Of a stretch of DNA of 32,000 bases, positions 17,413 to 31,633 are shown one piece after another (positions within the stretch are counted from its first letter, which is position 1; the number at the start of each line of letters is the position of its first letter). Source of the DNA: Acaryochloris marina MBIC11017 (lineage in GTDB: Bacteria; Cyanobacteriota; Cyanobacteriia; Thermosynechococcales; Thermosynechococcaceae); assembly GCF_000018105.1 (NCBI RefSeq), contig NC_009928.1:241122-273121 (forward strand), written 5' to 3'. The notes beneath the pieces are model-generated. The model was not told the origin of the DNA. It did no database searches and worked only from the letters and a program-made list of their open reading frames with translations. The position numbers were made by a program, and so were the translations under genes.

Positions 17413-17423
17413 AATATACCCCT
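17413..17423 (-). promoter_or_regulatory. Backbone motif copy (minus strand AGGGGTATATT)
   Basis: aatatacccct lies in the intergenic region just downstream of the YlqD-like stop, 58 nt upstream of a 16-codon mini-ORF. Confidence 0.35.
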
Positions 17424-17446
17424 CCCTCAAAGCAGCTAAGCCAATA

Positions 17447-17962
17447 TCACAATTCGCCCCGAAGTTCTTCAATGACCCCATCCCGCAGCACCATCTCGAC
17501 CTGCATCTTGCGAATAAAGTGGTCGCCTTGCTTGACGTAAAAGTAGCTATCTACCTGGCCTTGTTCAACTTCCTCGCCCAGCTCCAATGTTCCGACCTTC
17601 TCCAGTTGCTGCAAGACTTGAGCTTTTTGCTGGAGCAGTTCGTTTTTGCGTTGTTCAGCTTGTACCTGGATGCCTTGGATCTGGTTCTGGGTTTCGCCTA
17701 CAGCACTGCTATCGGCCCCAACAACTTGAATCGTATGCTGGCTTAGCTCCTCAACCATTTGATTGACCTGGATGGCCAGTTGGCCAAGCTGCTCGTCTAA
17801 CTGATCAACTTGGGACTGGAGAAGTTGCTGTGCCTCGTCTTTCCATATAGGAGTGACGATGGCCTTGATGGTGATTGGACGATTGAGTAAGAGCTGATTG
17901 GATGATGGAGACTCAACCCAAAGTTCTGGTTTGGGCTGGGTGGGACGGTTTTGAGTAAGCAT
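17447..17962 (-). CDS. Coiled-coil protein, YlqD-like (tentative)
   Basis: 171 aa. ...ITIKAIVTPIWKDEAQQLLQSQVDQLDEQL...LELGEEVEQGQVDSYFYVKQGDHFIRKMQVEMVLRDGVIEEL resembles cyanobacterial YlqD-family proteins as I remember them. AAGGAG lies upstream of the ATG. Confidence 0.7.
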   Translation of the reverse strand: MLTQNRPTQPKPELWVESPSSNQLLLNRPITIKAIVTPIWKDEAQQLLQSQVDQLDEQLGQLAIQVNQMVEELSQHTIQVVGADSSAVGETQNQIQGIQVQAEQRKNELLQQKAQVLQQLEKVGTLELGEEVEQGQVDSYFYVKQGDHFIRKMQVEMVLRDGVIEELRGEL

Positions 17963-18004
17963 GATTTGCTCTCCTTAATTTGATAGTTTTGAAGGTGACG
18001 AATT

Positions 18005-18180
18005 AATATACCGCCGCTCTGATTTGCTAGTTGGCGATGCTGGGTAATATGTCACCAGCTTTATTGGCTCCTGTTGGAGATGCCAGGTAATGTGCCACCG
18101 CTCTGATTTACTTGGTTGGAAGTGACCGATAATCTGCCACCTTGAGAATTTAGCTGAGTGGTGCCAGTGAATATGCCACT
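18005..18180 (-). repeat. Phased array of five backbone-motif copies (about 42-bp period)
   Basis: aatataccgcc 18005, aatatgtcacc 18046, aatgtgccacc 18089, aatctgccacc 18131, aatatgccact 18170. Copies 1 and 3 share about 30 nt (ccgctctgattt.ct.g.ttgg). The array straddles the stop codon at 18061. Confidence 0.75.
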
Positions 18181-18444
18181 CTTGTCATTTGCCGAAGTTG
18201 GGGCGATGGTCCCCCGCAGCCACCAGCCCCCAAACCCAGCGATGAGGGCGACTAGCACAACTAGCCAACCCCAATAACTGACATCGCCAAGCACAGCCAT
18301 GCGGTACTCATGGTCTCGGCGACGTTGGGCAGACTGCATTAGGAATTGCTGGTTGTCGTTAATTTGCTTGCGCTCTCGCAGGGCCTCAATCCGCTCGTTG
18401 TTCTCAAGAATGCTCATCACCCACGAGAACACCATTTCGCCCAC
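18061..18444 (-). CDS. Small membrane protein (127 aa, one TM helix)
   Basis: GTG start. TM helix YWGWLVVLVALIAGFGGWWL. The C-terminal 40 aa or so are encoded by the motif array, so the tail may be incidental. Confidence 0.6.
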   Translation of the reverse strand: MGEMVFSWVMSILENNERIEALRERKQINDNQQFLMQSAQRRRDHEYRMAVLGDVSYWGWLVVLVALIAGFGGWWLRGTIAPTSANDKSGIFTGTTQLNSQGGRLSVTSNQVNQSGGTLPGISNRSQ

Positions 18445-18455
18445 GAAAGTCCACG

Positions 18456-19097
18456 CTACTCCTCCACCACAGTGGCTTTTAAGAGCGGCTGCTTTCCCGG
18501 CGTCAGTTGATTGGCCGTTAGCTTACTCACTAGCGCAGCCACCTCTGGACGCTGCATAATTTCATCGGCTTTGGCCTGGATTCGGGCGTTGACGTATCGG
18601 TTGGCACTTTCATCCAACTCACCCAAAACTTGTACAACCTGATGGATGGTATTCTCCGTCGCCAAGTCGATAATCGGATCTATCTTCCGCTTCAGAACTT
18701 CCGGTAGTTCAGCTCTGGGGATTGCAGATTCTACCAGTGGTACCTCTTCTACCCCTCGCATCTCTGCTTTGACCGCATCAACAGGGTCAACCCCTTCCTC
18801 AGAGACACGCTCACAGACGAGGATAAACAGTGGGTGATATAGGTCGTCTCCTGTCTCAATCCCTTCAGCAGAAATCGCCTTGTGGATAGGCTTAAGGTCC
18901 ACTTGATACATCTCAGATGTGTAGATGCACCAGCCATGCGTGTAGGTGTCTGCGTTGTTTTCAGCCTTGAGCTGGAGGACACCCTGCAAGGTCTCCAGAT
19001 CATAGCCGTCCTCGCTCATTCCGCAGGCCCGTAGTAGCTTGTCGAGGTCATTTTGCTCAATGCCCAATGTTTGGGTTAGGTCAGTTGCATTCGTCAT
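18456..19097 (-). CDS. Hypothetical protein (213 aa)
   Basis: Clean acidic ORF. ATG 19097 lies 30 nt downstream of the first copy of the three-copy motif array. Confidence 0.75.
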   Translation of the reverse strand: MTNATDLTQTLGIEQNDLDKLLRACGMSEDGYDLETLQGVLQLKAENNADTYTHGWCIYTSEMYQVDLKPIHKAISAEGIETGDDLYHPLFILVCERVSEEGVDPVDAVKAEMRGVEEVPLVESAIPRAELPEVLKRKIDPIIDLATENTIHQVVQVLGELDESANRYVNARIQAKADEIMQRPEVAALVSKLTANQLTPGKQPLLKATVVEE

Positions 19098-19126
19098 TGT
19101 TTAATTCTCCAAATGTTGTGCTGGTG

Positions 19127-19228
19127 GAATATGCCACCGTGGATTTTGATGGCAGCAAAGAAGGGACATGTGAATATGCCACCGTGGGTTTTGATATCGG
19201 TAGTGAGAGGACATATGAATATGCCCCC
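19127..19228 (-). repeat. Three backbone-motif copies at an exact 45-bp period (candidate centromere or iterons)
   Basis: gaatatgccaccgtggattttgat begins at 19127, gaatatgccaccgtgggttttgat at 19172, and gaatatgccccc at 19217. The array lies between the stop of the ParR-like gene and the start of the 213-aa gene. Confidence 0.8.
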
Positions 19229-19244
19229 TCACTTTTTTTTGCGG

Positions 19245-19643
19245 TCAGTCGTCCATAACGAACTCTTCAAATTCCGCTTGCGACTCATCCCAAGGGGGTG
19301 TGTCATCAAGGTCATCGGCTTCCGCTGGTAATGTGCCACCAGGGTTACTCAGTGTTGGTGCAACCATGACGGGTAGGGGCACCTCTGCTTCAGCTAGCCC
19401 CAAAGCCATCTGGTAATAGCCTTCAACTTGGACCCTAGAAACTTCAATAGCCCCTTGAATCGCAGCTCGATTACGAGTCTGGATGGCGACAGACAGCACC
19501 TTTAGCACAGAAAACATAATGTCCATGCATAGCCGGGTAAAACTGGGTCCAGGGCCGTAGTGATTGCGAACCGTTTTGACAATTACCCCTCGCTCAGAGG
19601 TGAGTTTCCACTGAGTCTTTACCTTGAAATAGATATCAGACAT
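19245..19643 (-). CDS. Small protein with acidic C-terminal tail; candidate ParR-like adaptor
   Basis: 132 aa. It overlaps the parM-like stop by 8 nt (translational coupling). The tail is AEADDLDDTPPWDESQAEFEEFVMDD. The assignment rests on position only. Confidence 0.7.
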   Translation of the reverse strand: MSDIYFKVKTQWKLTSERGVIVKTVRNHYGPGPSFTRLCMDIMFSVLKVLSVAIQTRNRAAIQGAIEVSRVQVEGYYQMALGLAEAEVPLPVMVAPTLSNPGGTLPAEADDLDDTPPWDESQAEFEEFVMDD

Positions 19644-20754
19644 TGCTCACCTCCGCTTTTGCACGCTTAGCTGACTTAGTAGTCTTGGTTGTCTTGACAC
19701 TTTTACGAGTGGGGGGAGCTTGCAACGTTTCAGGACGATCTGCACTCTGCCGCCATACCAGATAGGCATCCGTCAGACGGTAGGTCATCGGAGACTTTGA
19801 CCATTCTGGGAATTCCTGACCAATAGTGCGAATCACAGGGCCTAGGGAGTCCATCTTGCCACTAAAGAATTCCTTGAGCTGCTTAGACCAGGCGGGCGCA
19901 CCCCCTCCCGCAACATAGATGCGCTTGGCTTGCACCACATCTATGTCACTACTCAATTGATGCTGGAGATTCACCCAGTACAGATCCCTAGCTTGGCGTA
20001 AGGAAGCCACGATGGGGCCAGCTTTCTCACCCAATGTCTTCTCAAGCCCTTTCTGGCCAACCCCCTGGGAAAAAATCAGCTTGGCACCCGTCAGCTCATT
20101 CGATGGTGTCCAGTTCATATGGTGCTGAATCATCAATGAGCCTCGTCCAGCCCAGGTCTGGATATAGCCCAAGCCACTATGCTCATCCTTGACCTTCGTC
20201 AAAGTGAAGTCCTTGTGACCAAACATCAGAATAATCGAGGGGTAGACCTTGGCATACGAGACGATTCCCGCACTCTCTGGCAAGACATTCACAAACCTCG
20301 GCGCACAGGTCAGTTGCTTCGGCCCGTACAAAAACTTGCTGACGTACTTCGCCAAATCTCGCTTCATCTGGGCAAAGCTTGGCTCCTCACTCTGAGGCAA
20401 GAGCAAGTCCAAATACATCTCGCAACCATTCCCAGCCTTCGAGATGGCATACCCCGCAATCGACAGCACCTTGGCAATCGCTTCAGGGTGCTTGTGCTGA
20501 TCTGTATTCGTCTGCCTGAGATTGGTTTCGGCAATCTGGCCCGTCTGCCAGTACATCCCTCCATAGCCAAGGAGAGAACTGTGAGCGGAGTTGTCGTGGT
20601 CCGACTCCTCATACAGACTCTCGGTTGTTCTGAGGACAGCAGATGGTTGTGTAATACATTCCTCAATCGGAAGCTTGCCATCCGGTGCAATTTGCAAGAA
20701 GGCTTTGGTCAAACTTGCACCGACATCGACCGTCAAAAATATTTTTGTAGTCAT
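19636..20754 (-). CDS. parM: ParM/StbA-like actin-fold plasmid segregation ATPase
   Basis: MTTKIFLTVDVGASLTKAF carries the phosphate-1 motif DxGxxxxK. RIYVAGGGAPAW carries the GGG loop. The protein is 372 aa. ATG 20754 is preferred because the TTG-extended ORF (to 20799) would run through a motif copy. Confidence 0.85.
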   Translation of the reverse strand: MTTKIFLTVDVGASLTKAFLQIAPDGKLPIEECITQPSAVLRTTESLYEESDHDNSAHSSLLGYGGMYWQTGQIAETNLRQTNTDQHKHPEAIAKVLSIAGYAISKAGNGCEMYLDLLLPQSEEPSFAQMKRDLAKYVSKFLYGPKQLTCAPRFVNVLPESAGIVSYAKVYPSIILMFGHKDFTLTKVKDEHSGLGYIQTWAGRGSLMIQHHMNWTPSNELTGAKLIFSQGVGQKGLEKTLGEKAGPIVASLRQARDLYWVNLQHQLSSDIDVVQAKRIYVAGGGAPAWSKQLKEFFSGKMDSLGPVIRTIGQEFPEWSKSPMTYRLTDAYLVWRQSADRPETLQAPPTRKSVKTTKTTKSAKRAKAEVSNV

Positions 20755-20783
20755 GTTGAAAAACCTATCGGTTTGGTCAAGGT

Positions 20784-20794
20784 AATGTACCCCC
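20784..20794 (-). promoter_or_regulatory. Backbone motif copy upstream of parM (minus strand GGGGGTACATT)
   Basis: aatgtaccccc, with 29 nt between the motif and ATG 20754. Confidence 0.4.
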
Positions 20795-20991
20795 GCCAAA
20801 ATTGCGGTTTTTGGGGGTCGATTGGGGGTCGTTTAGGTACTCGAAAGCCCTATTTGCAAGGATCCTAGAGATGGTGCTACTTTGGGGGCAGATTCAAGAG
20901 GTTCTGGAGGGGTCGCTGAGGCTCCCACACCCATCACCACTCCGAGGCACCGGAACGGAAATTTACCCAATCGGACTGACCCTAAATTTTC

Positions 20992-21086
20992 GTAGTACAT
21001 TCAGAAACATTTTTGTACTATCACGTAGTACTTCCGTAGTTGTTTTGTAGCTTCACTCTGTAGTATTCAGTAGTATCTCTGTAGTT
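20992..21086. repeat. Array of about eight yGTAGTwy iterons at 10-13 bp phasing in the parM/relaxase divergent intergenic region
   Basis: GTAGT(A/T) occurs at 20992, 21025, 21036, 21060, 21070 and 21081, with variants GTACTA at 21015 and GTAGCT at 21047. Confidence 0.7.
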
Positions 21087-21205: not shown

Positions 21206-24200
21206 ATGAAGACGATGCGGACCATCTATGGAGAGATGATTGACTATTACGATGAGGATGAATCTCTCGTAGATGCTCCAGAGCGCTATTACAGCGAATC
21301 CGAGGTTATCACTGACATCGACCGCATGAGTACCGCTGTCTGGGTCGGCTCCAACGCGATTGTTCAAAAGTTAGGCACCTACGTTAAACGAGAGGACTTT
21401 AAAGCCCTCAGTCGAGGATTTCTGCCTGAATCCTTAAAGAGTGTCGCGGGTGGTGCAGTCCAACGGATTCGGGGCAAGAAACCCAACGAAGAAGACAAAG
21501 AACGCCTTGCCCATGACCTGGTGCTGTCTGCGCCTAAAAGTGTGTCGATGGCCCTGCACTTAGAGGGGGACAACCGGATCTTTGATGCCCACATGGAGGC
21601 AGTTCTCGAAACCTTTGAGTTGCTTGAACGCGAGTATGCCCAGACCCGAATTCAAGTAAACGGGGTGCGCTCCGTCGTCGATACGGGCAATATGATTGCT
21701 GCATTGATGCCTCATCACACGTCTCGCGATGGAGACATGCAGCTCCACACCCACATGCTGATCATGAATGGCACTGAGGGGCCAGATGGTCGGTGGCGCT
21801 CCCTCTCTCATGAAAAGCTGGCTCAGGCCAAGTGGATCGGCAGCTTCTACCGTCAGAAGTTAGCTGAGAAAGTTCAACGGCTGGGCTATCGCATCTATCA
21901 AACCAAGGATGCATTTGAGCTAGTGGGCTACGACCGTTCTGATGTCGAAGTCTTTTCTAAGCGTCACCGGGCCATCGTCAAAGCGGTTCAGAAAGAGGGG
22001 CTAGAAGTTACTCCTGAGAATAAGAAGCTGAAGGTACTCCCCACTCGCAAAGCTAAGCGGGGTGTGGGCAAAAAGCTCGAAATCATCCAAGACCATTGGA
22101 GAGAAGAAGCCCGCTCTCAAGGGGTGGGTCATCCGGTTTTGGCTGAACCTCTGGCTGTAATGCCTGACCCAGACCGAGCCAGGTATGAGGTTGAAAGTGC
22201 TATTCGCCATTATGCGGAGTGGTCCTCAATCTTTGAGAAGGACGACATCTATGCCTATGTCTTCAAGACCCTCAAACGTCAAGGCATGGCTATGGAACAG
22301 GTGGATGAGGCCATCAAGCAAAGCAAGGAACTGATCCCCGTTGACCGTGGATTCACCACCGTCACTGCCGTTGAAGAAGAAGCCCAGATCCACCAGCGCT
22401 GGATGGAGGGCCAAGGTCAAGCTCAGCCGATGGTCGCTCATCCTTCCCTTTTGGGGATTAGCGTTGAGCTGAATGAAGACCAGGCCAAGGCCATACTCAA
22501 TACCCTCTCCAGCTCTGACCGTTACCAAATCTGGCAGGGCTTTCCAGGGGTGGGCAAATCTCGCACATTGGGGGTACTCAAGACTTTACTCAATGGATCT
22601 GGCTTAAGTATTCGGGGATTCAGCCCCACGATTCCAGCCGCAAAGAAGCTCCAGGATGAGCTTGGAATCACGACCAATACCGTTGAGCATCTAGTTCTAC
22701 ATAAAGTTGAGGACAGCCCCAATCAAGTCTGGCTGATTGATGAAGCGGGCATGATGAGCCGACGACAGATGAAGGTGATTCTGGAGAAAGCTGAACCCAT
22801 TGGGGCACAAGTCATCTTCGTAGGGGATGCAGGTCAAAACTCTGCGATTGAGGCAGGCAATCCCTTCAAGTTCATGCAGGCCAATGGAGCCACCACCCAT
22901 CGGATTGAGGAGATTGTCAGGCAAAAAGTTGATGTCCAAAAGCAGGCCGTTGAACTGATTGCTAGAGGCAGAGGAATTGCAGCACTAGAACTCCTCGATG
23001 CTAATGGATATGTGATTGAGTCGGGCTGTAAAGCGGAAATGGCCCAAGCCGCAGCAGATCAGTTCCTCGCACTCCCCCTCAAAGAACAAGAGGAAACCCT
23101 GATTATCGCTGGCACCAATGAGGAACGACTCGATACGGAGCAAGCCATTCGTTGGGGTGAGAAACAAGCGGGACGGCTAGGGGAATCCAGCAAGATTGTT
23201 CAGCTCAAGTCTCGCAACCTGAGTATCGAACAAAAGCGACGGGCGGATTGGTATCGAAAAGGGGATTACGTTCGGCTACTGCAAACATCGAAGACATCAT
23301 CCATCAAACGGGGACAGCTCTACAAGGTGGAGAAGCGAGAGGGAGATGAGCTGGTGGTATCTTCCTTTGGCGGTCGGCTCTATCGATTCAAACCCGCGAA
23401 ATACAAACTAAAGGAGGTCTACAGTGCCCATAAATTTGATGTGGCCGTTGGAGATAAGTTGCGGTGGACGACAACGATCAAAGAAAACAACTGGATTAAC
23501 GGTCAGCAGCTCACGGTCACCGCCCTCGATGGCTTGAATATGAAGGTCAGGGACCATGAGGGACGTTCCCATGATGTGCCACTGACGCAACCGCTTGCCT
23601 TGGAGTATGACCGGGTGTGGACTTCCTACCGCTCCCAGAGTGGCACGAAGAAACGGACGATTGTCATCACCACGAATGACCGGACCTCAAGCCGAGAGCC
23701 GTTCCTCGTCGATATTTCCCGACAAGAACATGAATTGACTGTCTATACCGAGAGCCTGAACAAACTCAGAAACCGAGTCGCCAAATCCAATGCTCAAAAA
23801 AGTGCTTTAGATCTAATCGAGGGAACCTATGGAAACCAACGAACAACAACAACAGAACGTCAACAATCAACAGCAGATCATCAACAATCAACAGCAGATC
23901 ATCAACGAGCTTCGAGTCCAGTTAGCCCCACTCACGGACGCGATCACCATCTTGACCAATCAAGTCGAAGAGGTCCAAACTCAGAACCAACACATCCTCG
24001 ACGAAAACAGAGAACTCAAGTCCCAGGTCAGGGAGCGGATCAACACCATCCCAATGGAAGTCAAAGCCGTTCTCAACCTATTTATCCAGGAGTTCAAGGA
24101 GGCGATGGCATCCAAGAAACCCTCGGATATGAGCGAGAGCATCAAGGAACTCGCCAAGGCAATGGACAACTTAAGGATGAAAATCGAGGATACCAGCGTG

Positions 24201-26815
24201 TTGCAGTTGACGATGAGCGACAAGGTATTGGAGGCCGCAGAGGAAATTATGCAGATCAAGAACAAGCTCCCCCGACACGCCCCACCCAAGACGGTCGCTC
24301 AACAGAATGGGGGTCAACCTCCTCAGACCTAGCAAACTGGGTGATGCAATGGTCTGAGGAGCAAGAGCTTGCAGCAAGTGGGTTAGGTGAACACCTGCTA
24401 GCCCTCTCTCAAAGCATAAACAGACTGAGTGAAAATCTCGATAATGTTTCTTTTAATGGCCTGGGCGAATTGGCTGAAGTCGTAGTAAGGGAGCTAGAAC
24501 AACAAGCCCTCGCCCAGAACCTTACTCATATTGCCCAATCCATTGACCAGATTGACCAGACCATCGAACAGACGGTTAGACAGCAAAGGATCAGGAGCAT
24601 TGCCGATGCTGTCACAGAATGGCGAACGGGCCAGGAGCTGGCAAATGCCGTCACCGAAATGGTGAATGTCCTGACTCAGGGCACTGAAGGGCTAGACCGG
24701 GCAATCATCCGACTCCAAGCCGGGATTGAAGCCACCCAATCTCTGGATGTCCAATTCCCCGCAATGGCTGAATTGGTCGATGCCGTTCATGATTGGCAAA
24801 CTGAGGTGGAAGTCTCTGCGGTCATGGGCGAAGTGCAGGACTTGGTTGCGTCAATCACGGTGCCCCAATTCCTGGGCATGGATGACCTGGCTCAGGATGT
24901 CCATGCCCTCAACGAAGAACAAGCCTTGGCTGAGAGTGGCTTGATTGAGCAGTTAGCTGAGTTGACCACTCAGATTAACGAGTTGGTTGAACCCCAGCAA
25001 GTTCAGTTTGAGGGCATAACTCAGTTGGCCGAAGTGGTGAGCGAACTCCAGCAGGGGCAATCCCTCGCTCAGGTGCAACCTCAGCTCCAGGCCATCACCC
25101 AGCAGATTGAAGCGTTTAACGCCAAGCAACCCACTTTTTCTTTTGCCAGAATCAAGGAGCTGGCCGATACCGTCAGTGAATGGAGGGCACATGAGTCCAT
25201 TGCTCAGCACATTGGCGCACTCAATGATCTAACCGTTCGCGCTCAACGAAGTCTGAGAATCTTCCCAGCTATGCTGCAATTGGCTAAATCCGTGAAGGCG
25301 ATGCGCTCAGTGGATGCACTCATGAATGGGCCAGTCGCAAATCAGCTCAAGGAAGTCGCCCAACAGTTGACAGACAAGGGAATAAGCGTCACTCCTAAGC
25401 CCAAAACCATTGATGATCAGGTGTTCTGGACACCCGACTATGAGGGAGTGGCGCGGCCAGACTACATTGATGAAAAACACTGGAATGAATGGGTGTCTAG
25501 TTGTGCCCATCCTGATGTGATTGCCGCTCGGCTCCAATCCATCGCCGATGATCAGGTGATTGATCGGTTGCTGGGAGCCAAGATTGAAGACATCGCCACT
25601 CGTAGACGGGATGGGTCTTTCAAGACGGTTCGTACTCAATATCCCATTAAAGCGATTCGGTCTTTGATTAATGAGCGGTCTCATCCTGAAGTGTTGAGCT
25701 ATCAAGAGCTAGCTGAAGGTGGGGGCTGGTGGGCTGATGCTGGAGTGGATCCGCTGTCCTTTGAAGAACTTGGCCCCAATGAGGAACCCACACTGAGTCT
25801 ATATGGAACGTTTAAACCTGATACTCCCCGCATTGACGTAGACAAGACCCGCAGAGCTAGGGCTAAAAACCCCAATGCCCCAACCAAATATCGCAAGTAT
25901 GAGAATCCATTGGGAACCAAGCGCGAATTGTTCGAGCGAGACATGGCATTCCAACCCGTCCCAGACCATATCGCTGAGCGGATCTTTGCCAAGTATGGTG
26001 TCACCCAAACCCAGGAGGAGAAAGCCAAGGGATTCTGGTACACGGTCTACAAGCATCCTGAGATTCCCATCTACCGGACTGAAGGCGATAAAAAAGATGC
26101 GGCATTAGTCTCTCAAGGAAGAGTCGTCATTGGTGGTCAGGGGGTCAACATCGGCTATCGGGCCAAGAACCAGCACGATGAAAAGCTCGAAAGAAGAGTA
26201 CTGCACCCTCAGCTAGACGTGTTTGCGGTTCCAGGCAGAGAGTTCAGGTATGCCCATGACTGGGATTCTGAGCAGTCCACGGTCTGGAACGTTCGCCGTG
26301 AAATGGTCAGAGAGGCTGAACTCATTGAAGAAAGAGACTGCAAGACATGGAGAATTCCTTGGGATTCTGAGAAAGGGAAAGGCGTCGATGACCTGATCGC
26401 TAATCATGGCCCCATCGCCTTTGAGCGGGCCGACAAGAATGCCTATCCGATGGAGCGGGAAATCACGATGCACTATCGGGGCCAGTACACCCAGATTAAG
26501 AAGCGATTAAATCGTCACTTTGGATGCGCGGTCCACGATATTCCCATTTACCTAGAAGCGATGAAGGATGGGGACGAGATGGATGGCATTCGGGTCCTAT
26601 GGGAGTCTTCCACTGCCCGGTCCTTCCAGCATTACCATGACAAGCAGCACTATATCGAGGGCATCATCAAACTCTCGGATGCCTATCGTAGACTCGTCAG
26701 AAAAGACGGTGACCCCAAGGCCATGCAAATCCTCGTCAACAGACTAAAAAAGCCCCGACCCATTATCAAGGTCGAGGCCAGAAGTCGGAATATAAAACGA
26801 GGCTATGGACGTTAG
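21206..26815 (+). CDS. MOBF-type (TrwC/TraI-like) relaxase plus RecD-like helicase, ending in a helical-repeat region and a Toprim-like (DUF3854-type) domain, all as one 1869-codon ORF
   Basis: N-terminal ERYYSE...WVGSNAIVQKLG. His triad HHTSRDGDMQLHTHMLIMN. Walker A GFPGVGKSRTLG. Walker B VWLIDEAGMMS. C-terminal IYRTEGDKKDAALVSQGRVVIGGQGV (Toprim Glu) and GKGVDDLIANHG (DxD). The bridge at 23829-24332 is suspect; see findings. Confidence 0.85.
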   Translation: MKTMRTIYGEMIDYYDEDESLVDAPERYYSESEVITDIDRMSTAVWVGSNAIVQKLGTYVKREDFKALSRGFLPESLKSVAGGAVQRIRGKKPNEEDKERLAHDLVLSAPKSVSMALHLEGDNRIFDAHMEAVLETFELLEREYAQTRIQVNGVRSVVDTGNMIAALMPHHTSRDGDMQLHTHMLIMNGTEGPDGRWRSLSHEKLAQAKWIGSFYRQKLAEKVQRLGYRIYQTKDAFELVGYDRSDVEVFSKRHRAIVKAVQKEGLEVTPENKKLKVLPTRKAKRGVGKKLEIIQDHWREEARSQGVGHPVLAEPLAVMPDPDRARYEVESAIRHYAEWSSIFEKDDIYAYVFKTLKRQGMAMEQVDEAIKQSKELIPVDRGFTTVTAVEEEAQIHQRWMEGQGQAQPMVAHPSLLGISVELNEDQAKAILNTLSSSDRYQIWQGFPGVGKSRTLGVLKTLLNGSGLSIRGFSPTIPAAKKLQDELGITTNTVEHLVLHKVEDSPNQVWLIDEAGMMSRRQMKVILEKAEPIGAQVIFVGDAGQNSAIEAGNPFKFMQANGATTHRIEEIVRQKVDVQKQAVELIARGRGIAALELLDANGYVIESGCKAEMAQAAADQFLALPLKEQEETLIIAGTNEERLDTEQAIRWGEKQAGRLGESSKIVQLKSRNLSIEQKRRADWYRKGDYVRLLQTSKTSSIKRGQLYKVEKREGDELVVSSFGGRLYRFKPAKYKLKEVYSAHKFDVAVGDKLRWTTTIKENNWINGQQLTVTALDGLNMKVRDHEGRSHDVPLTQPLALEYDRVWTSYRSQSGTKKRTIVITTNDRTSSREPFLVDISRQEHELTVYTESLNKLRNRVAKSNAQKSALDLIEGTYGNQRTTTTERQQSTADHQQSTADHQRASSPVSPTHGRDHHLDQSSRRGPNSEPTHPRRKQRTQVPGQGADQHHPNGSQSRSQPIYPGVQGGDGIQETLGYEREHQGTRQGNGQLKDENRGYQRVAVDDERQGIGGRRGNYADQEQAPPTRPTQDGRSTEWGSTSSDLANWVMQWSEEQELAASGLGEHLLALSQSINRLSENLDNVSFNGLGELAEVVVRELEQQALAQNLTHIAQSIDQIDQTIEQTVRQQRIRSIADAVTEWRTGQELANAVTEMVNVLTQGTEGLDRAIIRLQAGIEATQSLDVQFPAMAELVDAVHDWQTEVEVSAVMGEVQDLVASITVPQFLGMDDLAQDVHALNEEQALAESGLIEQLAELTTQINELVEPQQVQFEGITQLAEVVSELQQGQSLAQVQPQLQAITQQIEAFNAKQPTFSFARIKELADTVSEWRAHESIAQHIGALNDLTVRAQRSLRIFPAMLQLAKSVKAMRSVDALMNGPVANQLKEVAQQLTDKGISVTPKPKTIDDQVFWTPDYEGVARPDYIDEKHWNEWVSSCAHPDVIAARLQSIADDQVIDRLLGAKIEDIATRRRDGSFKTVRTQYPIKAIRSLINERSHPEVLSYQELAEGGGWWADAGVDPLSFEELGPNEEPTLSLYGTFKPDTPRIDVDKTRRARAKNPNAPTKYRKYENPLGTKRELFERDMAFQPVPDHIAERIFAKYGVTQTQEEKAKGFWYTVYKHPEIPIYRTEGDKKDAALVSQGRVVIGGQGVNIGYRAKNQHDEKLERRVLHPQLDVFAVPGREFRYAHDWDSEQSTVWNVRREMVREAELIEERDCKTWRIPWDSEKGKGVDDLIANHGPIAFERADKNAYPMEREITMHYRGQYTQIKKRLNRHFGCAVHDIPIYLEAMKDGDEMDGIRVLWESSTARSFQHYHDKQHYIEGIIKLSDAYRRLVRKDGDPKAMQILVNRLKKPRPIIKVEARSRNIKRGYGR
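23829..24332 (+). CDS. Embedded +1-frame ORF encoding a 167-aa coiled-coil-like protein (possible separate cistron)
   Basis: GAGG (23819-23822) lies 6 nt upstream of the ATG. An in-frame TAA sits at 23814. Codons are C/G-ending. The product is amphipathic (NELRVQLAPLTDAITILTNQVEEVQTQNQHILDENRELKSQV...). The ORF stops 11 nt before the in-frame ATG 24344 of the long ORF. Confidence 0.5.
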   Translation: METNEQQQQNVNNQQQIINNQQQIINELRVQLAPLTDAITILTNQVEEVQTQNQHILDENRELKSQVRERINTIPMEVKAVLNLFIQEFKEAMASKKPSDMSESIKELAKAMDNLRMKIEDTSVLQLTMSDKVLEAAEEIMQIKNKLPRHAPPKTVAQQNGGQPPQT

Positions 26816-27012
26816 TCTACACGACGGGAGTTAATCACCGTACCACCGTAAGGACTAATCCAATCAGACCCCGGCATGGGAGGTGGGCCTGGAACAATCT
26901 CAGTGCGCCTCCAACCAGATCTATCTTCAATTTCTATGAGGCTCCGTTCTTGAGGTTTGCGGTTTTCTGGAAAGACTCGGCTTTGAATATCGTCTGAATA
27001 AATTTCTGACAT
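26812..27012 (-). CDS. Hypothetical small protein (66 aa)
   Basis: AAGGAG lies 7 nt upstream of the ATG, and a motif copy lies 46 nt upstream. Its stop overlaps the relaxase stop in a convergent arrangement. Confidence 0.5.
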   Translation of the reverse strand: MSEIYSDDIQSRVFPENRKPQERSLIEIEDRSGWRRTEIVPGPPPMPGSDWISPYGGTVINSRRVD

Positions 27013-27058: not shown

Positions 27059-27069
27059 AATATGCCACC
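27059..27069 (-). promoter_or_regulatory. Backbone motif copy (minus strand GGTGGCATATT)
   Basis: aatatgccacc lies between the 752-aa stop (27073) and the 66-aa start (27012). Confidence 0.4.
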
Positions 27070-27072
27070 CCT

Positions 27073-29331
27073 TTATCGGGACATGGAAACTTCTCGTTTG
27101 GGCTGTTCTTTCTCCTCAACGGGGGGACGAGCATTGTTCTTTTTAATCCTGGCAATGAGCTTGCTTGAATCTAGGCCTTTCTCTCGCCTCCGATTAATCG
27201 TATCTTTCTGTTCTTGAGTGAAGCCCGCTAGCTCATCCTGGCTTTCTGCGGTGGGACTCTCATTCTGAGATTGGGTATTTTTGGACTCTACATTTATTTT
27301 CTCATCCCCAGATTTCTGATTTTGAGAATCTGGTTTGGGTTCCTCAACCTCAGCCTGCTCATCTTGCGCTTTTGGCTTCGGAGCCTCTGTCTCAGCCTTC
27401 TGGCTTTTTGCTTCGCCTTGCTGCTCTTGATTATCCTTTGGCATGTCAGCCTCAGCTTTTAGGTCTTTCCCAGCGAGATTATAGCGATCTGGAAGCGCAA
27501 TACCATTTTGGATTCTGAGAACCGTGCGAGTGCCCAATTTAATCGTCAGCGTCCCTTTGAAATTCTCAGGGTTTTTGAGGGCATCCTGAATCATCTGAGC
27601 CTGCTCTAAATTGACGGAACTGCGATTGTGGTCAATCATTCCATCACCATCAAGCCGAAATATCTCTTGTCGATTCAAAATAACTCGCAGATTGCTAATC
27701 TCAATGCTACGACCCAGCTTTTCAACGATATCCTCATTGATCATGCGGAGTGGGTCAAGGTCTTCAGATTCCGAGGTTTTCGCTTTCGGTGCTTCCGCTT
27801 CAGGTGCTTGAGAGGGTTCAGACCTTTCTGGTTCTGAGGAGTTGCGGACCACAGCCCTAGCCTCCTCCTCACTCATGCCTTCCTCTTGACCTTGCATCAC
27901 GACCAGCTCGTCATAGTATTCCTGCAACTGCGGATCTTCGCTGATGTATTCTTGAATGTCAGCATAGGTCAGCTCTTCGTCCAGGGCTTTAGACAACAGC
28001 TCCGCATATTGGTCTTGGCTTGTGGGGGCATTCTGTACCTCTGCCCCCTGCTCAAAGGCATCATAGTTGGCCTCAGTGGTGACGAGTTTCTGAACGTCCT
28101 CAATGTCCATCCCATTAACAGCAGCTTGAGCCACCACCTTCTGATCCAGCTCACTCAATAACGTTGGTTTCTCACTGAGGCGAGACTGAATATCCTCCCA
28201 GGTCAGATCTGGATTCTTCTCAAATTCACCCAGTAGCTGGGAATATTGCTGTTGGGCGTCCGTTGATAGTTCGACCGAGGGATTCACGACAGAAGCATTC
28301 ACTTCCAATACTGTTTGAGCTTCAGGCTCCTGGTTCAGCTCCTGATTAACTTCTGGGGTGGGGTTCTCTAGTTTGTATTGCGCCTCCACTGACTTTGCTG
28401 TCTCAGCTAGATAAACAGAGGTATCTTGAAGCTTCGCGTCAGCCATCTGAGATACATTCGGTCCCTGTGAGATAATCGCGGTTGCTTCATCCGGGCCTTT
28501 CCCTGCTTTGAGCGCTTGGTAGAAGACTTGCTTGTCATAGTCAGCTCCTAAGTCGGGCTGATTTTGGAGAGTCTCCTGAATACGCTCATAGGTGAGATTG
28601 GGGTCATTCTGTTGCTCAGATAGGATCTTTACATATTCATCTCGTCGCTCCATATCGCGCTCTGTGGGGATGGAGGCTTGGTTCTGTGCTTCAGCCATTG
28701 TTGCTTGTCTCCTTTGTACGGTTTCCATTGCACTACGAACGTTCTGCTGCACTTGCTCTGGCAGCTTGCTCAATGTTTCCTCAAACCAATCCTTGGCCCG
28801 ATTGATGTAGTGATTCGTCATCCTCCACATATGGACCACGGGACGAGCTACCACGGTAGGAATGCCCTGTCTGGCATAGCTAATGGCAAGTTTGCCTGTA
28901 TCAATCATGCTTTTCCCGATCACCGTCGGAGCGGCAAACCCGCTCAAGGGCCGTGCCCAAGCATCCGTCTTTGCGAGGAGATCTGGGATTCTGACTTTCG
29001 CCCAATCGTCAAACGCCCTTTGACGGAACCAATGGGTTAAACCCGGTTGGATCTGGCTGGACATCTCGGCAAACTGATTCGTGAGCCGTGTTTCGGTAAA
29101 GTCATGGATACTGGAGTGCATCCAGTGAGTGGCTTGACCCACGGCACCCGCGACGAAGGGGCCAACGATGGGGGTATGGGTCGCTGCCACGGCTACTCCT
29201 GGCACTGCTGCCATCTGAATCCCTTTCTTAGCCACACGCATTAAGGGAGCCGCTTGGAAAAAGAGTTGTTCTTCCTCCCTGAGTTCTTGATATTTTTTGC
29301 TGATGAAATTCTGAAATTCAAGTTTTTCCAC
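27073..29331 (-). CDS. Large acidic repeat protein of unknown function (752 aa)
   Basis: GTG start with GGAGAA upstream. The N-terminus has a hydrophobic segment AAVPGVAVAATHTPIVGPFVAGAVG. Three modules of about 57 aa are present (...DP.LT(Y/W)E.IQ..L...P.L....D..V...). The tail is K/E/Q-rich. Confidence 0.8.
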   Translation of the reverse strand: MEKLEFQNFISKKYQELREEEQLFFQAAPLMRVAKKGIQMAAVPGVAVAATHTPIVGPFVAGAVGQATHWMHSSIHDFTETRLTNQFAEMSSQIQPGLTHWFRQRAFDDWAKVRIPDLLAKTDAWARPLSGFAAPTVIGKSMIDTGKLAISYARQGIPTVVARPVVHMWRMTNHYINRAKDWFEETLSKLPEQVQQNVRSAMETVQRRQATMAEAQNQASIPTERDMERRDEYVKILSEQQNDPNLTYERIQETLQNQPDLGADYDKQVFYQALKAGKGPDEATAIISQGPNVSQMADAKLQDTSVYLAETAKSVEAQYKLENPTPEVNQELNQEPEAQTVLEVNASVVNPSVELSTDAQQQYSQLLGEFEKNPDLTWEDIQSRLSEKPTLLSELDQKVVAQAAVNGMDIEDVQKLVTTEANYDAFEQGAEVQNAPTSQDQYAELLSKALDEELTYADIQEYISEDPQLQEYYDELVVMQGQEEGMSEEEARAVVRNSSEPERSEPSQAPEAEAPKAKTSESEDLDPLRMINEDIVEKLGRSIEISNLRVILNRQEIFRLDGDGMIDHNRSSVNLEQAQMIQDALKNPENFKGTLTIKLGTRTVLRIQNGIALPDRYNLAGKDLKAEADMPKDNQEQQGEAKSQKAETEAPKPKAQDEQAEVEEPKPDSQNQKSGDEKINVESKNTQSQNESPTAESQDELAGFTQEQKDTINRRREKGLDSSKLIARIKKNNARPPVEEKEQPKREVSMSR

Positions 29332-29374
29332 TGTTCAAGTTCTCCATAGTTAGAGTCCTAAATCGTTGCAAGAG

Positions 29375-29385
29375 AATGTACCGCT
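29375..29385 (-). promoter_or_regulatory. Backbone motif copy (minus strand AGCGGTACATT)
   Basis: aatgtaccgct overlaps the stop of the 118-aa gene and lies 43 nt upstream of GTG 29331. The flank AGAGAAT is shared with the copy at 27059. Confidence 0.4.
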
Positions 29386-29740
29386 ACCGTCCAAACCCTC
29401 GATTTTGGCCTCGGTTCCGATTCTGGGTGAGCTTGTGGCCGTGGGTTTCCACCGCGACTTTGAGCTGGGCACTCTTCACATACCGCTCCGCCATCTTGGT
29501 TGGGTCTTGCACTTTCTCGGCATAGTCGCTCATCCGTAGCTTGGTCTTAATCACATCCGTGGGGGTGTTGTTCCGTATCTCCTGCTTCGCCAGTTCCATT
29601 GCCTGTTCAGCGGTCTCGATCTTGACCGCCACTCGCGGCTTGCGGAGGGCGACGGCATTGATGATGACGCTGTTGGTCGCATTCACGGCCTGCTGGCCGA
29701 TTTGCAACGCTTCTCTAAATTGCTGTTCTTCGCTACTCAT
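29384..29740 (-). CDS. Hypothetical protein (118 aa), translationally coupled to the coupling-protein gene
   Basis: ATGA start/stop overlap with the T4CP gene at 29737-29740. The C-terminus is basic (NRNRGQNRGFGR). Confidence 0.7.
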   Translation of the reverse strand: MSSEEQQFREALQIGQQAVNATNSVIINAVALRKPRVAVKIETAEQAMELAKQEIRNNTPTDVIKTKLRMSDYAEKVQDPTKMAERYVKSAQLKVAVETHGHKLTQNRNRGQNRGFGR

Positions 29741-31464
29741 GCGGCTTGTTCCTCCTGTTGCTTCAATTTGTGGGATTCAACTTCTTGGGTAGAGGGCAGC
29801 AAAGCATCCGCAGACACCATGCGGTCGGACATGATTTGTTCTGGAGAATCTAACACCCGCTCTTGGGCTATCCTCTCCATCTGCCTATGGACATGGCTGT
29901 TGTACATCCGCTCACATTCGGTGAACCGCTGCATGTCCGTGCCATTCCGCTTCTTCAAGTTGAAGCGCATCCGAATGGGCCGATCATCCATGCCGGGGTT
30001 GGTGCAGATAAATTCCCCTTTCTTCAATCGCTTGATATCTGAAGCGGTAATCAACCGCTTCTTCTTCTCCTGTTCATTGCGGGAGCGGCTGTTGCCCATC
30101 TTCCCGTAGCTGCGAGATTTGGAATGGTAGTGCTTGGTGTATTCCCCCAAGTCCGCACTCAGGTCTTCTCGGACTTTGTAGCTCCCACTCTTGAATATGA
30201 ATTGGGTGGAGGTGTTATCAAAGATCGACTCTGAGGTCTCAGACTGATATTTAATCTTGGGTTGGCTATAGCTCTGCATGGACACAAAGGAATAGAACCC
30301 ATAGCTCCGATCCAAGGACACCACTTCTTCAAAGCTCGGCAGCATCAATCGGGCGAATTCATCTAGGAACACACCAAAGGGCCGATCCCGTTCTGTATCC
30401 TCATTCAGGTTGCGCTGAATCAGTAGGTGAATAGCAACTGCGACGAGGGGGGCCGTGGCTTTCTTGGCTTGTCCATCCAACTCAAAGAAGATGATTTGCT
30501 TACCCGGTAGGTCCAAAGGAATGGTGGATTGGGTGGGTTCGCGCCCATCGATGGACAGACAGGGGATGGTCTGCCGATTGACCATTGGTAAGAGATAGTT
30601 GATGCCACTCGCTAATATGCCACCAGCAGTATCTTGGGTGCCCGTCACGCTCATCAGGCCCACGAGCTGTTGCCTCACCCACATGCCCAAATCGCTATCT
30701 ACTTTGAATGCCCCTTCTTGGTCCGCCAACTGAATCCGCTCGGCGATGCCCGGCAGGCCCATCAAGGCCCAGACCATCGGCAAGTCCGCATAGTCTGCCC
30801 GCTTTGCCATCATCAGCAATGCTTGTAGAAGGTACTCGGCGTGATTGTCGAAGAAAGGATGCTTGTTCGACATATTGACAATCACGTTATCGGACAAGGT
30901 TGAGGCGATGGACCGGGCAATCAGGGAGTCATCCGCATCCCGCATAAATCCCAGGTAGTCAAAGCCATGACTATAGGGCTTGCCCGGAGCAAAGCAGTAG
31001 CACTCATAAGGAATTTTTTGCTTGCGGGCATAGGGGATGAATATCTTCTTGAGGGTGCCTTTGACATCAAAGACAATCAGAGTGTGCTCTTGAAGAATGG
31101 CATCTGCTAAAGCTAGCTCAATTAGTTTGGTCTTGCCCTTACCAGAGCCGCCTACGATGGTGACGAGGGGTTGGAGGTCGGGGAGGATCAGGGGGTCATC
31201 GCTACCCAAGCGCAGGGCAATCTCATCCCGTTTTCGGTCTCTGATCTGCTTGAGTCCCAGCATCTTAGCTCGATGCTGTTCCCGTCTCGTGGCCCACCGG
31301 GCATCATCGGGTTCACGTCTCGTCTCATCCTCAAACCACCACAGGGCAATCAGGATGAGAGCCAATAAGCCCGTCAACCAGGGGAGAGGGCCACTGAATA
31401 GGGGAGACAGGTCAACTCCTTCAGATTGGGGCTGGGGAGGCTGTTCGGTTTTGTGCTGCATCAT
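29737..31464 (-). CDS. Type IV secretion coupling protein (VirD4/TraG/TraD family)
   Basis: N-terminal TM helix LPWLTGLLALILIALWWF. Walker A IVGGSGKGKTKL. Walker B-like GVFLDEFARL. 575 aa. Confidence 0.9.
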   Translation of the reverse strand: MMQHKTEQPPQPQSEGVDLSPLFSGPLPWLTGLLALILIALWWFEDETRREPDDARWATRREQHRAKMLGLKQIRDRKRDEIALRLGSDDPLILPDLQPLVTIVGGSGKGKTKLIELALADAILQEHTLIVFDVKGTLKKIFIPYARKQKIPYECYCFAPGKPYSHGFDYLGFMRDADDSLIARSIASTLSDNVIVNMSNKHPFFDNHAEYLLQALLMMAKRADYADLPMVWALMGLPGIAERIQLADQEGAFKVDSDLGMWVRQQLVGLMSVTGTQDTAGGILASGINYLLPMVNRQTIPCLSIDGREPTQSTIPLDLPGKQIIFFELDGQAKKATAPLVAVAIHLLIQRNLNEDTERDRPFGVFLDEFARLMLPSFEEVVSLDRSYGFYSFVSMQSYSQPKIKYQSETSESIFDNTSTQFIFKSGSYKVREDLSADLGEYTKHYHSKSRSYGKMGNSRSRNEQEKKKRLITASDIKRLKKGEFICTNPGMDDRPIRMRFNLKKRNGTDMQRFTECERMYNSHVHRQMERIAQERVLDSPEQIMSDRMVSADALLPSTQEVESHKLKQQEEQAA

Positions 31465-31598
31465 TCACCACCTTTGTTTTTAGCGATGGGGATGAATCTG
31501 TCGTTGTGTCTAAAGTAGTGGTCACAGCAATAGGTTTGTTGGCTGGAGTAACCCAACTGCACAAGCAGGGGCACTACGAGAAATCTGATGTTGGTCAT
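31461..31598 (-). CDS. Possible 45-aa leader ORF coupled to the coupling-protein gene
   Basis: My own translation is MTNIRFLVVPLLVQLGYSSQQTYCCDHYFRHNDRFIPIAKNKGGE. Its TGA overlaps the T4CP ATG (ATGA). A motif copy lies 24 nt upstream of its ATG. Confidence 0.3.
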   Translation of the reverse strand: MTNIRFLVVPLLVQLGYSSQQTYCCDHYFRHNDRFIPIAKNKGGE

Positions 31599-31622
31599 GA
31601 CGGTCAGAATTATCTACGCGAT

Positions 31623-31633
31623 AATGTACCGCC
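31623..31633 (-). promoter_or_regulatory. Backbone motif copy upstream of the T4CP operon (minus strand GGCGGTACATT)
   Basis: aatgtaccgcc lies in the intergenic region between the divergent T4CP operon and the Uma2 gene. Confidence 0.4.

Follow-up and report, generated by a model that had tools for sequence, protein, structure and literature searches.

The window analysed here is a 32,000-nucleotide stretch of an Acaryochloris marina plasmid. On its minus strand lie a T4CP operon, a 752-aa gene, a 66-aa gene, parM- and parR-like genes of 372 and 132 aa (19245..20754), the gene of a 213-aa protein called p213 here (18456..19097), and ylqD. A group-2-like sigma factor of the RpoD family, with a non-canonical region 3.0, is encoded on the plus strand (2662..3501). 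It was found that one short motif, of 11 bases, recurs closely upstream of the minus-strand operons.

Distribution of the motif in the window

The strict plus-strand pattern AATRTRCCVCC has 10 matches in the window, all on the plus strand, against 0.12 expected; none of 100 shuffled sequences reached 10. When one mismatch was allowed, 19 matches were found (4.1 expected), of which 16 are on the plus strand between 17413 and 31865. All 15 copies of the original prediction are among them, 10 fitting the strict pattern and five being one base off, and a position weight matrix with a cut-off score of 15 or more returned exactly these 15 sites. Another one-mismatch match on the same strand, at 31865, falls within the Uma2 gene. 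The motif had been described as strand-locked. It precedes minus-strand genes only and points with the downstream gene, and to this extent the description holds; it is not absolute, since one-mismatch matches in the opposite orientation occur at 10185, 20884, and 23353.

An enrichment between genes, which the original prediction had suggested looking for, is clear: the intergenic share of the backbone is 9.4% and holds 10 of the 15 copies (P = 1e-7). With each array counted once, seven of nine clusters are intergenic (P = 2e-6). The predicted spacing of 24-46 nt before six start codons was reproduced, the recomputed gaps being 24, 43, 46, 29, 30, and 42 nt. Every backbone gap of at least 50 nt on the motif-bearing strand carries a copy. 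The tightly coupled pairs parM-parR, T4CP/118-aa gene, and p213/p127 have none, and the relaxase operon, the sole backbone operon on the plus strand, is without a GGYGG-type copy.

All copies are read on the minus strand, and related loci are given by their L numbers. In the divergent region of the T4CP operon and Uma2, the copy GGCGGTACATT (31623..31633) lies 24 nt upstream of ATG 31598, and L001, L002, and L004 have the identical sequence in the equivalent position. The copy AGCGGTACATT (29375..29385), 43 nt upstream of GTG 29331 of the 752-aa gene, also has a counterpart at the same place in these three loci. A copy of GGTGGCATATT (27059..27069) lies 46 nt upstream of ATG 27012 of the 66-aa gene; it is the same in L138, and L005 and L006 have their own motif type at the equivalent place. 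Another GGTGGCATATT (30614..30624) lies within the T4CP gene, where it codes for the conserved peptide AGGIL. The motif is absent from the homologous T4CP sites in L001 and L005, and this copy is probably fortuitous.

The copy GGGGGTACATT (20784..20794) lies 29 nt upstream of the parM start codon (ATG 20754), directly on the downstream side of two tandem iterons of 11 bp (20811..20832, with the minus-strand sequence [AT]CGACCCCCAA) that are distinct from the motif. The copy GGTGGCACATT (19330..19340) lies within the parR-like gene, at its 3′ end; the array described next follows 112 nt downstream. It is kept in L013 and L137, and L003 and L012 have their own type, CACGGGTATATTATCT, at this place. 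Since relatives keep it, each in the motif form of its lineage, this copy is probably functional.

Two arrays were found. The one upstream of the p213 gene (19128..19228) has three copies (19128, 19173, 19218) at 45-bp spacing, of which the proximal one lies 30 nt before ATG 19097 and the distal one within a hairpin. The one upstream of ylqD (18005..18180) has five copies (18005, 18046, 18089, 18131, 18170) at 39-43-bp spacing, of which the proximal one lies 42 nt before ATG 17962; the tail of the 127-aa ORF extends over three of the copies. Relatives have 1-3 copies in the former and 1-5 in the latter. Because copy number varies in this way, the arrays are labile amplifications. The last copy, AGGGGTATATT (17413..17423), is an orphan downstream of ylqD. 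Its orthologues in relatives precede a 141-149-aa gene that is missing from the window, where the two genes found after ylqD in relatives are deleted. This copy is either an orphan promoter remnant or now serves a 69-aa gene 184 nt away.

Conservation of the core and divergence of the flank

Is the motif common to related plasmids? It was found upstream of almost every maintenance or transfer operon in one family of Acaryochloris plasmids. In 13 related backbones it occupies the same syntenic promoter positions, in the same direction as the downstream gene; the recurrent positions are upstream of the T4CP gene, the 752-aa gene, parM, the p213 gene, ylqD, and the gene after ylqD. As an independent test, a matrix trained on the window alone was applied to five other loci. 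It gave 36 sites, all within the backbones and all gene-oriented, and no site in the flanking cargo of the same loci. The motif was also absent from about 20 kb of chromosome, of which three near-identical copies were read.

The constant part of the motif is G-YAYATT. The 5′ flank differs by lineage, being GGYGG, CACGGG, or AAATCMG, and copies within a plasmid are identical over up to 15 nt (e.g., in L003 and L012). Judged from these sequences, the motif type appears to be uniform within a plasmid, L005 being the exception. Since L005 has both types, the flank type is not strictly plasmid-specific. Nor does it simply follow the neighboring genes: the L004 ParM belongs to the L005-L008 clade (48-57% identity, versus 38% to the window), although L004 has a parM promoter of the GGYGG type, and the T4CP module of the window is nearer to that of L005, yet its copies are GGYGG-type.

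The hexamer hardly varies at its second position (A) and in its final ATT, and varies most at the third position. This profile matches the conservation of sigma-70-type -10 hexamers. When parM promoters (six of them) and p213 promoters were aligned, the motif was the most conserved island. In the gaps of 52 nt (that of the 752-aa gene) and 60 nt, it is the sole TAnnnT/CAnATT candidate. GGAG lies between the motif and the start codon in four of the six cases. No -35 element is present at the motif sites.

A proposed shared promoter element and its alternatives

These comparisons point away from a partition site; most likely the motif shows where the -10 region of shared promoters lies. On balance, I lean toward a core-promoter element common to these operons, with a flank that a plasmid factor reads. 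The original prediction had raised a shared promoter, -10 or extended -10, as one possibility; it fits best, given the conserved island, the sole candidate in short gaps, the hexamer profile, and the parC iterons-motif-parM order. The original interpretation as a whole is supported in part. The presence, orientation, intergenic placement, and syntenic recurrence of the motif, its division into core and flank, and its independence from ParR are observations; from them I infer promoter activity, where transcripts start, and which factor acts.

The coding-strand reading is GG-Y-GG-YAYATT, in which YAYATT would be the -10 hexamer and the GGYGG box would occupy -17 to -13, the place of an extended -10. 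Such promoters would work without a -35 element. Transcripts may start about 7 nt past ATT, leaving a 5′ UTR of about 17-39 nt, in which GGAG would serve as the ribosome-binding site of four of the six genes. Since the core is constant in all lineages and the flank is lineage-specific and uniform per plasmid, a plasmid-encoded reader of the flank can be inferred. This factor would co-regulate the whole backbone, and may be either a regulator bound over the -10 region or a sigma factor with an altered reading of the extended -10. The candidates are p213 and the plasmid sigma, the latter also being a candidate reader of the -10 core. The 42-45-bp arrays would result from recent tandem amplification of a promoter-bearing unit.

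Several observations sit less easily with promoters. Nine of the 15 copies have C, not T, at the first hexamer position, and among 72 unique sites there are six that lack both a TG and a T at -12. It would be odd for five promoters to stand in tandem every 42 bp, a layout that suggests a protein-binding array, and promoters are not usually so dense as one for every one or two genes.

For the lineage-specific flank, an operator of a global regulator is favoured. Might the motif then be only an operator, an asymmetric site bound by a global backbone regulator (e.g., p213 head to tail), and not a -10 element? Single copies would then serve for repression, and the arrays for high-affinity nucleation or titration. 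The arrays have a period of about four helical turns and lie upstream of ylqD and of the gene of the candidate regulator, and the near-identity of copies within L003 and L012 also suits an operator. The flank type follows the N-terminal domain of p213, which groups by motif type: Arg23 is present in seven of seven distinct GGYGG-type backbones (L001 and L002 taken as one) and in none of seven others. The first 113 residues of p213 are predicted with pLDDT >90 in an a1-a2-b-b-a3 topology with weak matches to the DNA-binding domains of RacA and MerR. However, the match to this winged HTH is not significant (E of about 0.9), and the domain is strongly acidic (about 8 K/R versus about 24 D/E by my own count). 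The p213 family is very narrow, and its tracking of the flank could be simple linkage. Moreover, what deeply diverged lineages have kept unchanged is exactly a -10-like hexamer, and it lies as far from the gene as a promoter would; the short gaps offer no alternative -10 candidate, and array copy number falls to one in many lineages. I consider the operator-only reading unlikely.

Another proposal is a sub-case of the shared promoter element in which the trans factor is named: the motif would be the promoter class of the plasmid sigma, whose altered region 3.0 would read GGYGG in place of TG. A sigma gene of this family lies within 4-15 kb of the backbone in five of five complete plasmids examined, and also in L138. 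The extended -10-reading segment, PVHxxET in cyanobacterial SigA, is PVWHWQT in the window sigma. The sigmas of L004 and L005 differ at only six positions past residue 21; three of these (121, 124, and 125) are in the equivalent segment, and the motif flanks of these two loci differ too. On the other hand, GGYGG-type plasmids have W, C, or R at the position equivalent to the His, and both the L004 and L005 sigmas have Asn at the Glu-equivalent position, though the -14 base differs. The family, often multi-copy, is also present on Acaryochloris plasmids that lack a motif-bearing backbone, whereas p213 is confined to backbone plasmids, and the sigma gene itself has no upstream motif. Naming this sigma as the factor is doubtful.

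It is quite improbable that the motif acts in RNA or in the non-template strand, whether as an ops-like pause or antitermination site or as a 5′ UTR signal for processing or translation. The motif is coding-strand-locked in the leaders of long transfer-backbone operons, and its GGCGGTA form matches the start of the Escherichia coli ops element GGCGGTAGnnTG. The array upstream of p213 folds better than shuffled sequence (z = -3.4), although this signal is one hairpin and the array upstream of ylqD is unstructured (z = -0.98). However, the AAATCMG and CACGGG lineages have no GGCGG, no NusG/KOW protein was found in the 28 window ORFs scanned, and there was no Rfam match. In addition, the T4CP and parM copies are in divergent regions, and the parM promoter alignment has no other conserved -10-like island upstream of the motif.

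Tandem direct repeats of 42-45 bp could also be replication-origin iterons for a Rep protein, with the dispersed copies as autoregulatory sites. This is very improbable: close relatives have anywhere from 1 to 5 copies in their arrays, the array units are poorly conserved outside the motif, no recognisable rep gene is adjacent, and single copies dispersed at six promoters are untypical of Rep iterons.

Least credible of all is that the ParR-like adaptor of the ParM system binds the motif as its centromere (parC) or operator, as one copy upstream of parM and an array just downstream of parR might suggest. The L004 ParM and ParR are 35-38% identical to those of the window, yet the motif is identical; the plasmids L001 and L004 of strain S15 have the motif in common, and a common centromere would mean incompatibility. 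The separate iterons upstream of the parM motif, in contrast, change with ParR type in L002, L003, L004, L005, L006, and L007, while the motif beside them does not, so the ParR-like protein, listed earlier among those to try in EMSA, can be dismissed as the binder. These iterons are probably the true parC centromere and ParR operator.

Comparison with known systems

The proposed promoter element is of a known kind, but its family is undescribed. Like the extended -10 (TGn-TATAAT) promoters of the sigma-70 type, it has an invariant A2 and T6 and a variable third position, lacks a -35 element, lies gene-oriented at a short fixed distance before the ribosome-binding site or start codon, and in its GGTGGCA form has TG at -15/-14. 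Unlike them, the conserved block is longer, with the G-run GGYGG, and nearly identical across the whole regulon; C stands at -12 in many copies, TG is missing from the GGCGGTA form, the flank varies by plasmid lineage, and copies form tandem arrays.

The KorA and KorB operators of IncP-1 RK2 and the StbA and ArdK direct repeats of IncW R388 define global regulons of conjugative plasmid backbones. As in these, one short cis element is present in most maintenance and transfer promoters but not in cargo, and arrays adjoin regulator or partition genes. The KorA and KorB sites are palindromes, whereas the present motif is asymmetric and orientation-locked. It also differs from all of these in overlapping or constituting the -10, in having only candidates for its DNA-binding protein, and in its cyanobacterial host, with backbone proteins that are mostly orphans.

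Some sigma factors encoded by plasmids or phages have a promoter class of their own, e.g., SigN of Bacillus subtilis pBS32. Here too, the element carries a sigma gene and a distinctive promoter motif confined to its own genes. Unlike SigN, the sigma-motif link is putative, with inconsistent covariation, and the sigma is a multi-copy family found also on plasmids without such a backbone.

In the type II partition system of R1, parC/ParR, iterons surround the parA promoter, according to a passage in bioRxiv 10.1101/2025.06.27.661541 that cites Dam and Gerdes 1994. Unlike parC, the motif is not an iteron, the lineage-specific iterons being separate and directly upstream, and it is common to five other operons unrelated to partition. 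As in R1, the window has 11-bp direct iterons beside a promoter, followed by parM and parR, and its ParR-like protein ends in an acidic C-terminal tail, as is typical of the adaptor. ParR bound to these iterons would repress the parM promoter, as in R1.

Placement of the motif in the window

A strict search of the window for AATRTRCCVCC, the plus-strand form of the 11-nt motif (GGYGGYAYATT on the coding strand), gave 10 matches, all on the plus strand, against 0.12 expected by chance. With one mismatch allowed, 19 matches were found against 4.1 expected, and all 15 copies listed in the original prediction are among them. A position weight matrix (PWM) built from the 15 copies returned precisely those 15 sites at a score of at least 15, while the best score in the cargo half (1-17 kb) was 10.6. 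The distances of 24, 43, 46, 29, 30 and 42 nt claimed between motif copies and six start codons were all obtained again. Intergenic sequence makes up only 9.4% of the backbone, the half with the maintenance and transfer genes, yet it holds 10 of the 15 copies (P = 1e-7), or seven of nine motif clusters when each array is counted once (P = 2e-6). No copy lies between translationally coupled backbone genes in the window. What had been called strand-locking is the orientation of the motif with its downstream gene; every gene that it precedes is on the minus strand.

The minus strand of the backbone encodes T4CP (29737-31464), a 118-aa protein (29384-29740), a 752-aa protein (27073-29331), a 66-aa protein (26812-27012), a distant actin-like protein of the ParM/StbA family (19636-20754), a ParR-like adaptor of 132 aa with an acidic C-terminal tail (19245-19643), the orphan 213-aa protein p213 (18456-19097), the small membrane protein p127 (18061-18444), and a YlqD-family protein (17447-17962). 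A MOBF relaxase fused to a C-terminal DUF3854 domain is encoded on the plus strand (21206-26815). The cargo side has a gene for a group-2-like RpoD-family sigma factor (2662-3501), as well as AbrB-like, HU, STAS, and two-component genes. One cargo gene, for a 571-aa response regulator, contains a 438-bp tandem duplication (8792-9740; 2.2 copies, 95% identical), through which the protein has three receiver domains. The window comes from a plasmid, whose closest relatives in PLSDB were found in A. marina S15 and in Acaryochloris sp. 'Moss Beach' (about 81% DNA identity).

Three copies deserve a separate description. The copy at 19330 lies inside parR but is conserved and is of the local motif type in two relatives with another flank (L003 and L012); thus, it is probably a member of the cluster upstream of the p213 gene. 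The copy at 30614, which codes for a conserved peptide, AGGIL, is probably coincidental. The copy at 17413 has lost its downstream genes by deletion: two genes that follow ylqD in the related loci L001, L005, and L013 are missing from 17230-17446, and the distance from the orphan copy to a conserved 69-aa gene (17020-17229) is now 184 nt.

Upstream of the T4CP gene, a Uma2 endonuclease gene begins on the plus strand at 31745, which makes the intergenic region between them divergent. The T4CP ORF itself begins at 31464, and the motif and the ATG at 31598 sit 134 nt upstream in another frame (31464-31640). Similarity to L001 and L004 stops directly past this motif copy. This looks to be a junction where recombination took place at the promoter, leaving behind a leader ORF or an N-terminus shifted in frame.

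Between parM and the relaxase gene, seven GTAG(T/C)(A/T) repeats were found on the plus strand (20992-21086), six of which are spaced 10-12 bp (21025-21086). A similar repeat is present in L005. The first repeat includes GTACATTC, the motif core without GGYGG, directed at the relaxase gene. These repeats may be an oriT or relaxosome accessory site, or the promoter region of the relaxase gene. CyRepA proteins, which serve in the replication of cyanobacterial plasmids, presumably contain DUF3854 as well, and if so, the relaxase might also act in replication. DUF3854 is not mentioned in the CyRep paper (PMC10899382).

Constant core and lineage-specific flank

Thirteen related backbones (L001-L008, L011-L013, L137-L139) were compared; a profile search of genome contigs with the ParM alignment returned one locus only. 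In an oriented scan with the matrix trained on the window, 36 sites were found in five other loci, all in the backbone and all oriented with their genes, and none in the flanking cargo of these loci. Throughout the relatives the motif occupies the same positions, upstream of the genes for T4CP, the 752-aa homolog, ParM, p213, YlqD, and the gene after ylqD. In the aligned parM and p213 promoters, it is the most conserved block besides the ribosome-binding site and the start codon. About 20 kb of the Acaryochloris chromosome around a ylqD paralog (L014-L016, three near-identical copies) has no motif site, including upstream of the paralog itself. This paralog (10001-10468) encodes a protein 64% identical to the plasmid copy and has an unrelated housekeeping neighbourhood; in fold, YlqD matches only PDB 4dci, whose function is unknown. 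A metagenome scan for motif pairs (GGCATATTN{29,36}GGYGGYAYATT) gave essentially chance matches from unrelated environments. An AT-rich, unrelated metagenome contig (L043, 300-590) has seven exact 42-bp tandem repeats with GGGGT(A/G)GCATATTACTT, followed by a second tandem-repeat array; its likeness to the motif and the spacing is probably a coincidence. No account of the motif was found in the published literature; it is a real and conserved cis element, not described before.

Three motif types were distinguished. The GGYGG type (GGYGG-YAYATT-A/C) is found in the window, L001, L002, L004, L011, L013, L137, and L138, the CACGGG type (CACGGG-TATATT-ATCT) in L003 and L012, and the AAATCMG type (AAATCMG-TAYATT-CYCAGCAAG) in L005-L008 and L139. 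Constant across the three are G-TAYATT and a short, fixed distance to the start codon. Among 40 unique GGYGG-type sites, A2, A4, T5, and T6 of YAYATT carry 1.6-1.8 bits, while the third position is the most variable at 0.8 bits, which is the profile of a sigma-70-type -10 hexamer. All 15 copies in the window fit this hexamer. Every site of the GGYGG and CACGGG types has G at -14, while the AAATCMG type has CAG instead. T at -15, present in 40 of the 72 unique sites, goes together with C at -12. In the GGYGG type, positions 3 and 6 of the motif are tightly associated over the 72 unique sites (T..C 36, C..T 20, G..T 6, G..C 6, T..T 3, C..C 0), and orthologous sites flip between GGTGGCA and GGCGGTA with no intermediates (18005 in the window and 10819 in L013; 19128 in the window and 15871 in L001). 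It is possible that TG at -15/-14 compensates for T at -12, or that gene conversion between copies has generated the coupling.

No -35 element is present at any copy, and a consensus scan for canonical -35/-10 promoters detected none of the copies. In the gaps of 52 and 60 nt between genes, the motif is the sole -10 candidate. The placement fits a promoter, 24-46 nt from six start codons, with 36 of 36 independent sites oriented with a gene. An expression study of Acaryochloris (PMC11633204) contains no mapped transcript starts for these backbone genes. From the hexamer profile and the placement I infer promoter activity, and I lean, if only slightly, towards a regulon of the plasmid backbone whose shared core-promoter element (-10 region) is this motif. 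The presence of the same site in several backbone operon promoters, and of none in the cargo, is also the distribution of an operator for a global regulator such as KorA/KorB or a StbA-like protein. The lineage-specific flank probably serves a plasmid-encoded factor.

Candidate readers of the motif

Each plasmid keeps to a single motif type, also where its modules differ in ancestry. The parM module of L004 is one such case; another is the T4CP module of the window, which is closer to that of L005 (45% vs 36%). This uniformity argues for a plasmid-specific trans-acting factor. An exception is L005, which kept two GGTGG copies beside a recently exchanged ylqD segment.

A candidate for the reader of the flank is p213, whose gene is itself preceded by three motif copies. 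Its N-terminal domain groups by motif type (window and L004, 86% identity; 34-40% to L005-L008), and Arg23 is found in seven of seven distinct GGYGG-type backbones (L001 and L002 counted together) and in none of seven others. This tracking may, however, be mere linkage, and the N-terminal domain is very acidic. The domain is predicted with pLDDT above 90 and an a1-a2-b-b-a3 topology. Its only specific fold matches are the DNA-binding domains of RacA (a winged HTH; probability 0.84-0.97) and the MerR family, and these are weak (E 0.9-3.7). Foldseek gave no significant match in the PDB or viral library, nor did sequence comparison match anything in Pfam, NCBIfam, or the PDB. The family is extremely narrow, with five representatives in 1.84 billion proteins, and in PLSDB it is confined to four backbone plasmids. 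Cys25, Cys57, His72, and Cys95 are invariant and may form a metal site, while the C-terminal half is variable. AbrB-like, HU, and YlqD proteins were rejected as type-specific binders, as their identities fail to separate the motif types.

The other candidate is the sigma factor encoded at 2662-3501. In E. coli sigma-70, His455 and Glu458 of region 3.0 read the TG of an extended -10. The corresponding PVHxxET segment of cyanobacterial SigA is PVWHWQT in the window sigma (residues 119-127). Variants of the segment in the plasmid sigmas are VWHWQ, ACHWQ, IHLNQ, ERHWN, and DHHWN. The sigmas of L004 (25088-25921) and L005 (20853-21677) have only six differences after residue 21, three of which fall in this segment; such a concentration between near-identical proteins hints at diversifying selection on extended -10 reading. 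Against the sigma, GGYGG-type plasmids have W, C, or R at the position equivalent to the His, and the family also occurs on Acaryochloris plasmids without the backbone, whereas p213 is confined to backbone plasmids.

It is conceivable, though I consider it rather unlikely, that these Acaryochloris megaplasmids transcribe their own backbone through a private system, via the sigma or p213. In such a system, promoters without a -35 would be recognized through a box at -17 to -13 (GGYGG, CACGGG, or AAATCMG by lineage). The box would be read either by the plasmid group-2-like sigma, with its replaced and fast-evolving TG-reading residues, or by p213 as a new acidic RacA/MerR-like protein working with RNA polymerase.

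Other roles and comparison with known systems

The ParR-like protein had been listed among possible binders of the motif, but the comparison with L004 speaks against it. In both ParM and ParR, L004 falls into the L005-L008 clade (48-57% identity) and reaches only 35-38% identity to the window (35% for ParR), while it bears the window-type motif unchanged at every promoter, that of parM included. Directly upstream of the motif at parM, 11-bp tandem iterons were found in 2 to 7 copies, with their own sequence in each ParR lineage: two copies of [AT]CGACCCCCAA in the window and L001 (20811-20832 in the window, minus strand ACGACCCCCAATCGACCCCCAA), two of CAAACGACCGA in L002, and seven of GGGAACTnnnn in L004 (about 12880-12955). 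Lineage-specific iterons are also present in L005 (about 12740-12790), L006 (about 9830-9940, two clusters), and L007. They, rather than the motif, are probably the parC centromere, in a type II partition system of a cyanobacterium. The order of iterons, motif, and parM is the same as in the parC/promoter region of the R1 plasmid. The motif itself was rejected as parC because it does not change with ParR, while the neighbouring iterons do. It is also a single copy at parM, and its arrays are spaced 39-45 bp and lie downstream of parR, unlike contiguous parC repeats. Moreover, L001 and L004 are plasmids of a single strain, S15, and both carry the motif, which would not be tolerated if it were their common centromere.

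Upstream of ylqD, the motif is repeated five times in the window and L138, four times in L004, and three times in L001, L002, L013, and L137, while L003, L011, L012, and the AAATCMG lineages have a single copy. Since the number varies from 1 to 5 among relatives, the arrays are labile tandem amplifications rather than a conserved architecture; a role in dosage, titration, or cooperative binding is possible. Iterons for Rep at an oriV were rejected because of this variation, and no rep gene was recognized nearby. A perfect 14-bp hairpin (GTGAGGGGGCATAT / ATATGTCCTCTCAC, 19205-19236) directly after the parR stop codon encloses the copy at 19218. T8 follows it on the plus strand, so that it resembles an intrinsic terminator of antisense transcripts; the stem at this place in L001 is a different one.

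RNA-level readings are unlikely. An RfaH-type ops element was rejected since only the first 7 nt of the GGCGGTAGnnTG consensus match, and only in the GGCGGTA form; the G-nn-TG part is absent from every window copy, and two of the three motif types lack GGCGG. No NusG or KOW domain was found among the 28 ORFs scanned in the window, although a paralog could be encoded elsewhere. No consistent RNA structure was found (z = -0.98 for the array upstream of ylqD, while the signal of the array upstream of the p213 gene is due to one hairpin), and Rfam gave no family match.

Acaryochloris has many large plasmids, which make up about a fifth of the genome, and their regulation is, to my knowledge, essentially unknown. 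The motif gives a first regulatory map of one plasmid-backbone family, with its transcription units, probable promoter positions, and likely joint control, in which the putative promoter element is now told apart from the probable parC iterons. It is also a candidate for a compact, portable, -35-less promoter for cyanobacterial engineering, and the lineage-specific flanks offer a way to study joint and separate control of transcription among co-resident plasmids. If the private system were true, it would shield maintenance and transfer genes from promoter recognition by the host, and co-resident plasmids could share or separate control by motif type; if the motif is an ordinary promoter read by a host sigma, it is a useful annotation and no more. 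Global regulons of other conjugative plasmids already have elements of this kind. New here are the particular member, the host group, and an asymmetric design that overlaps the -10.
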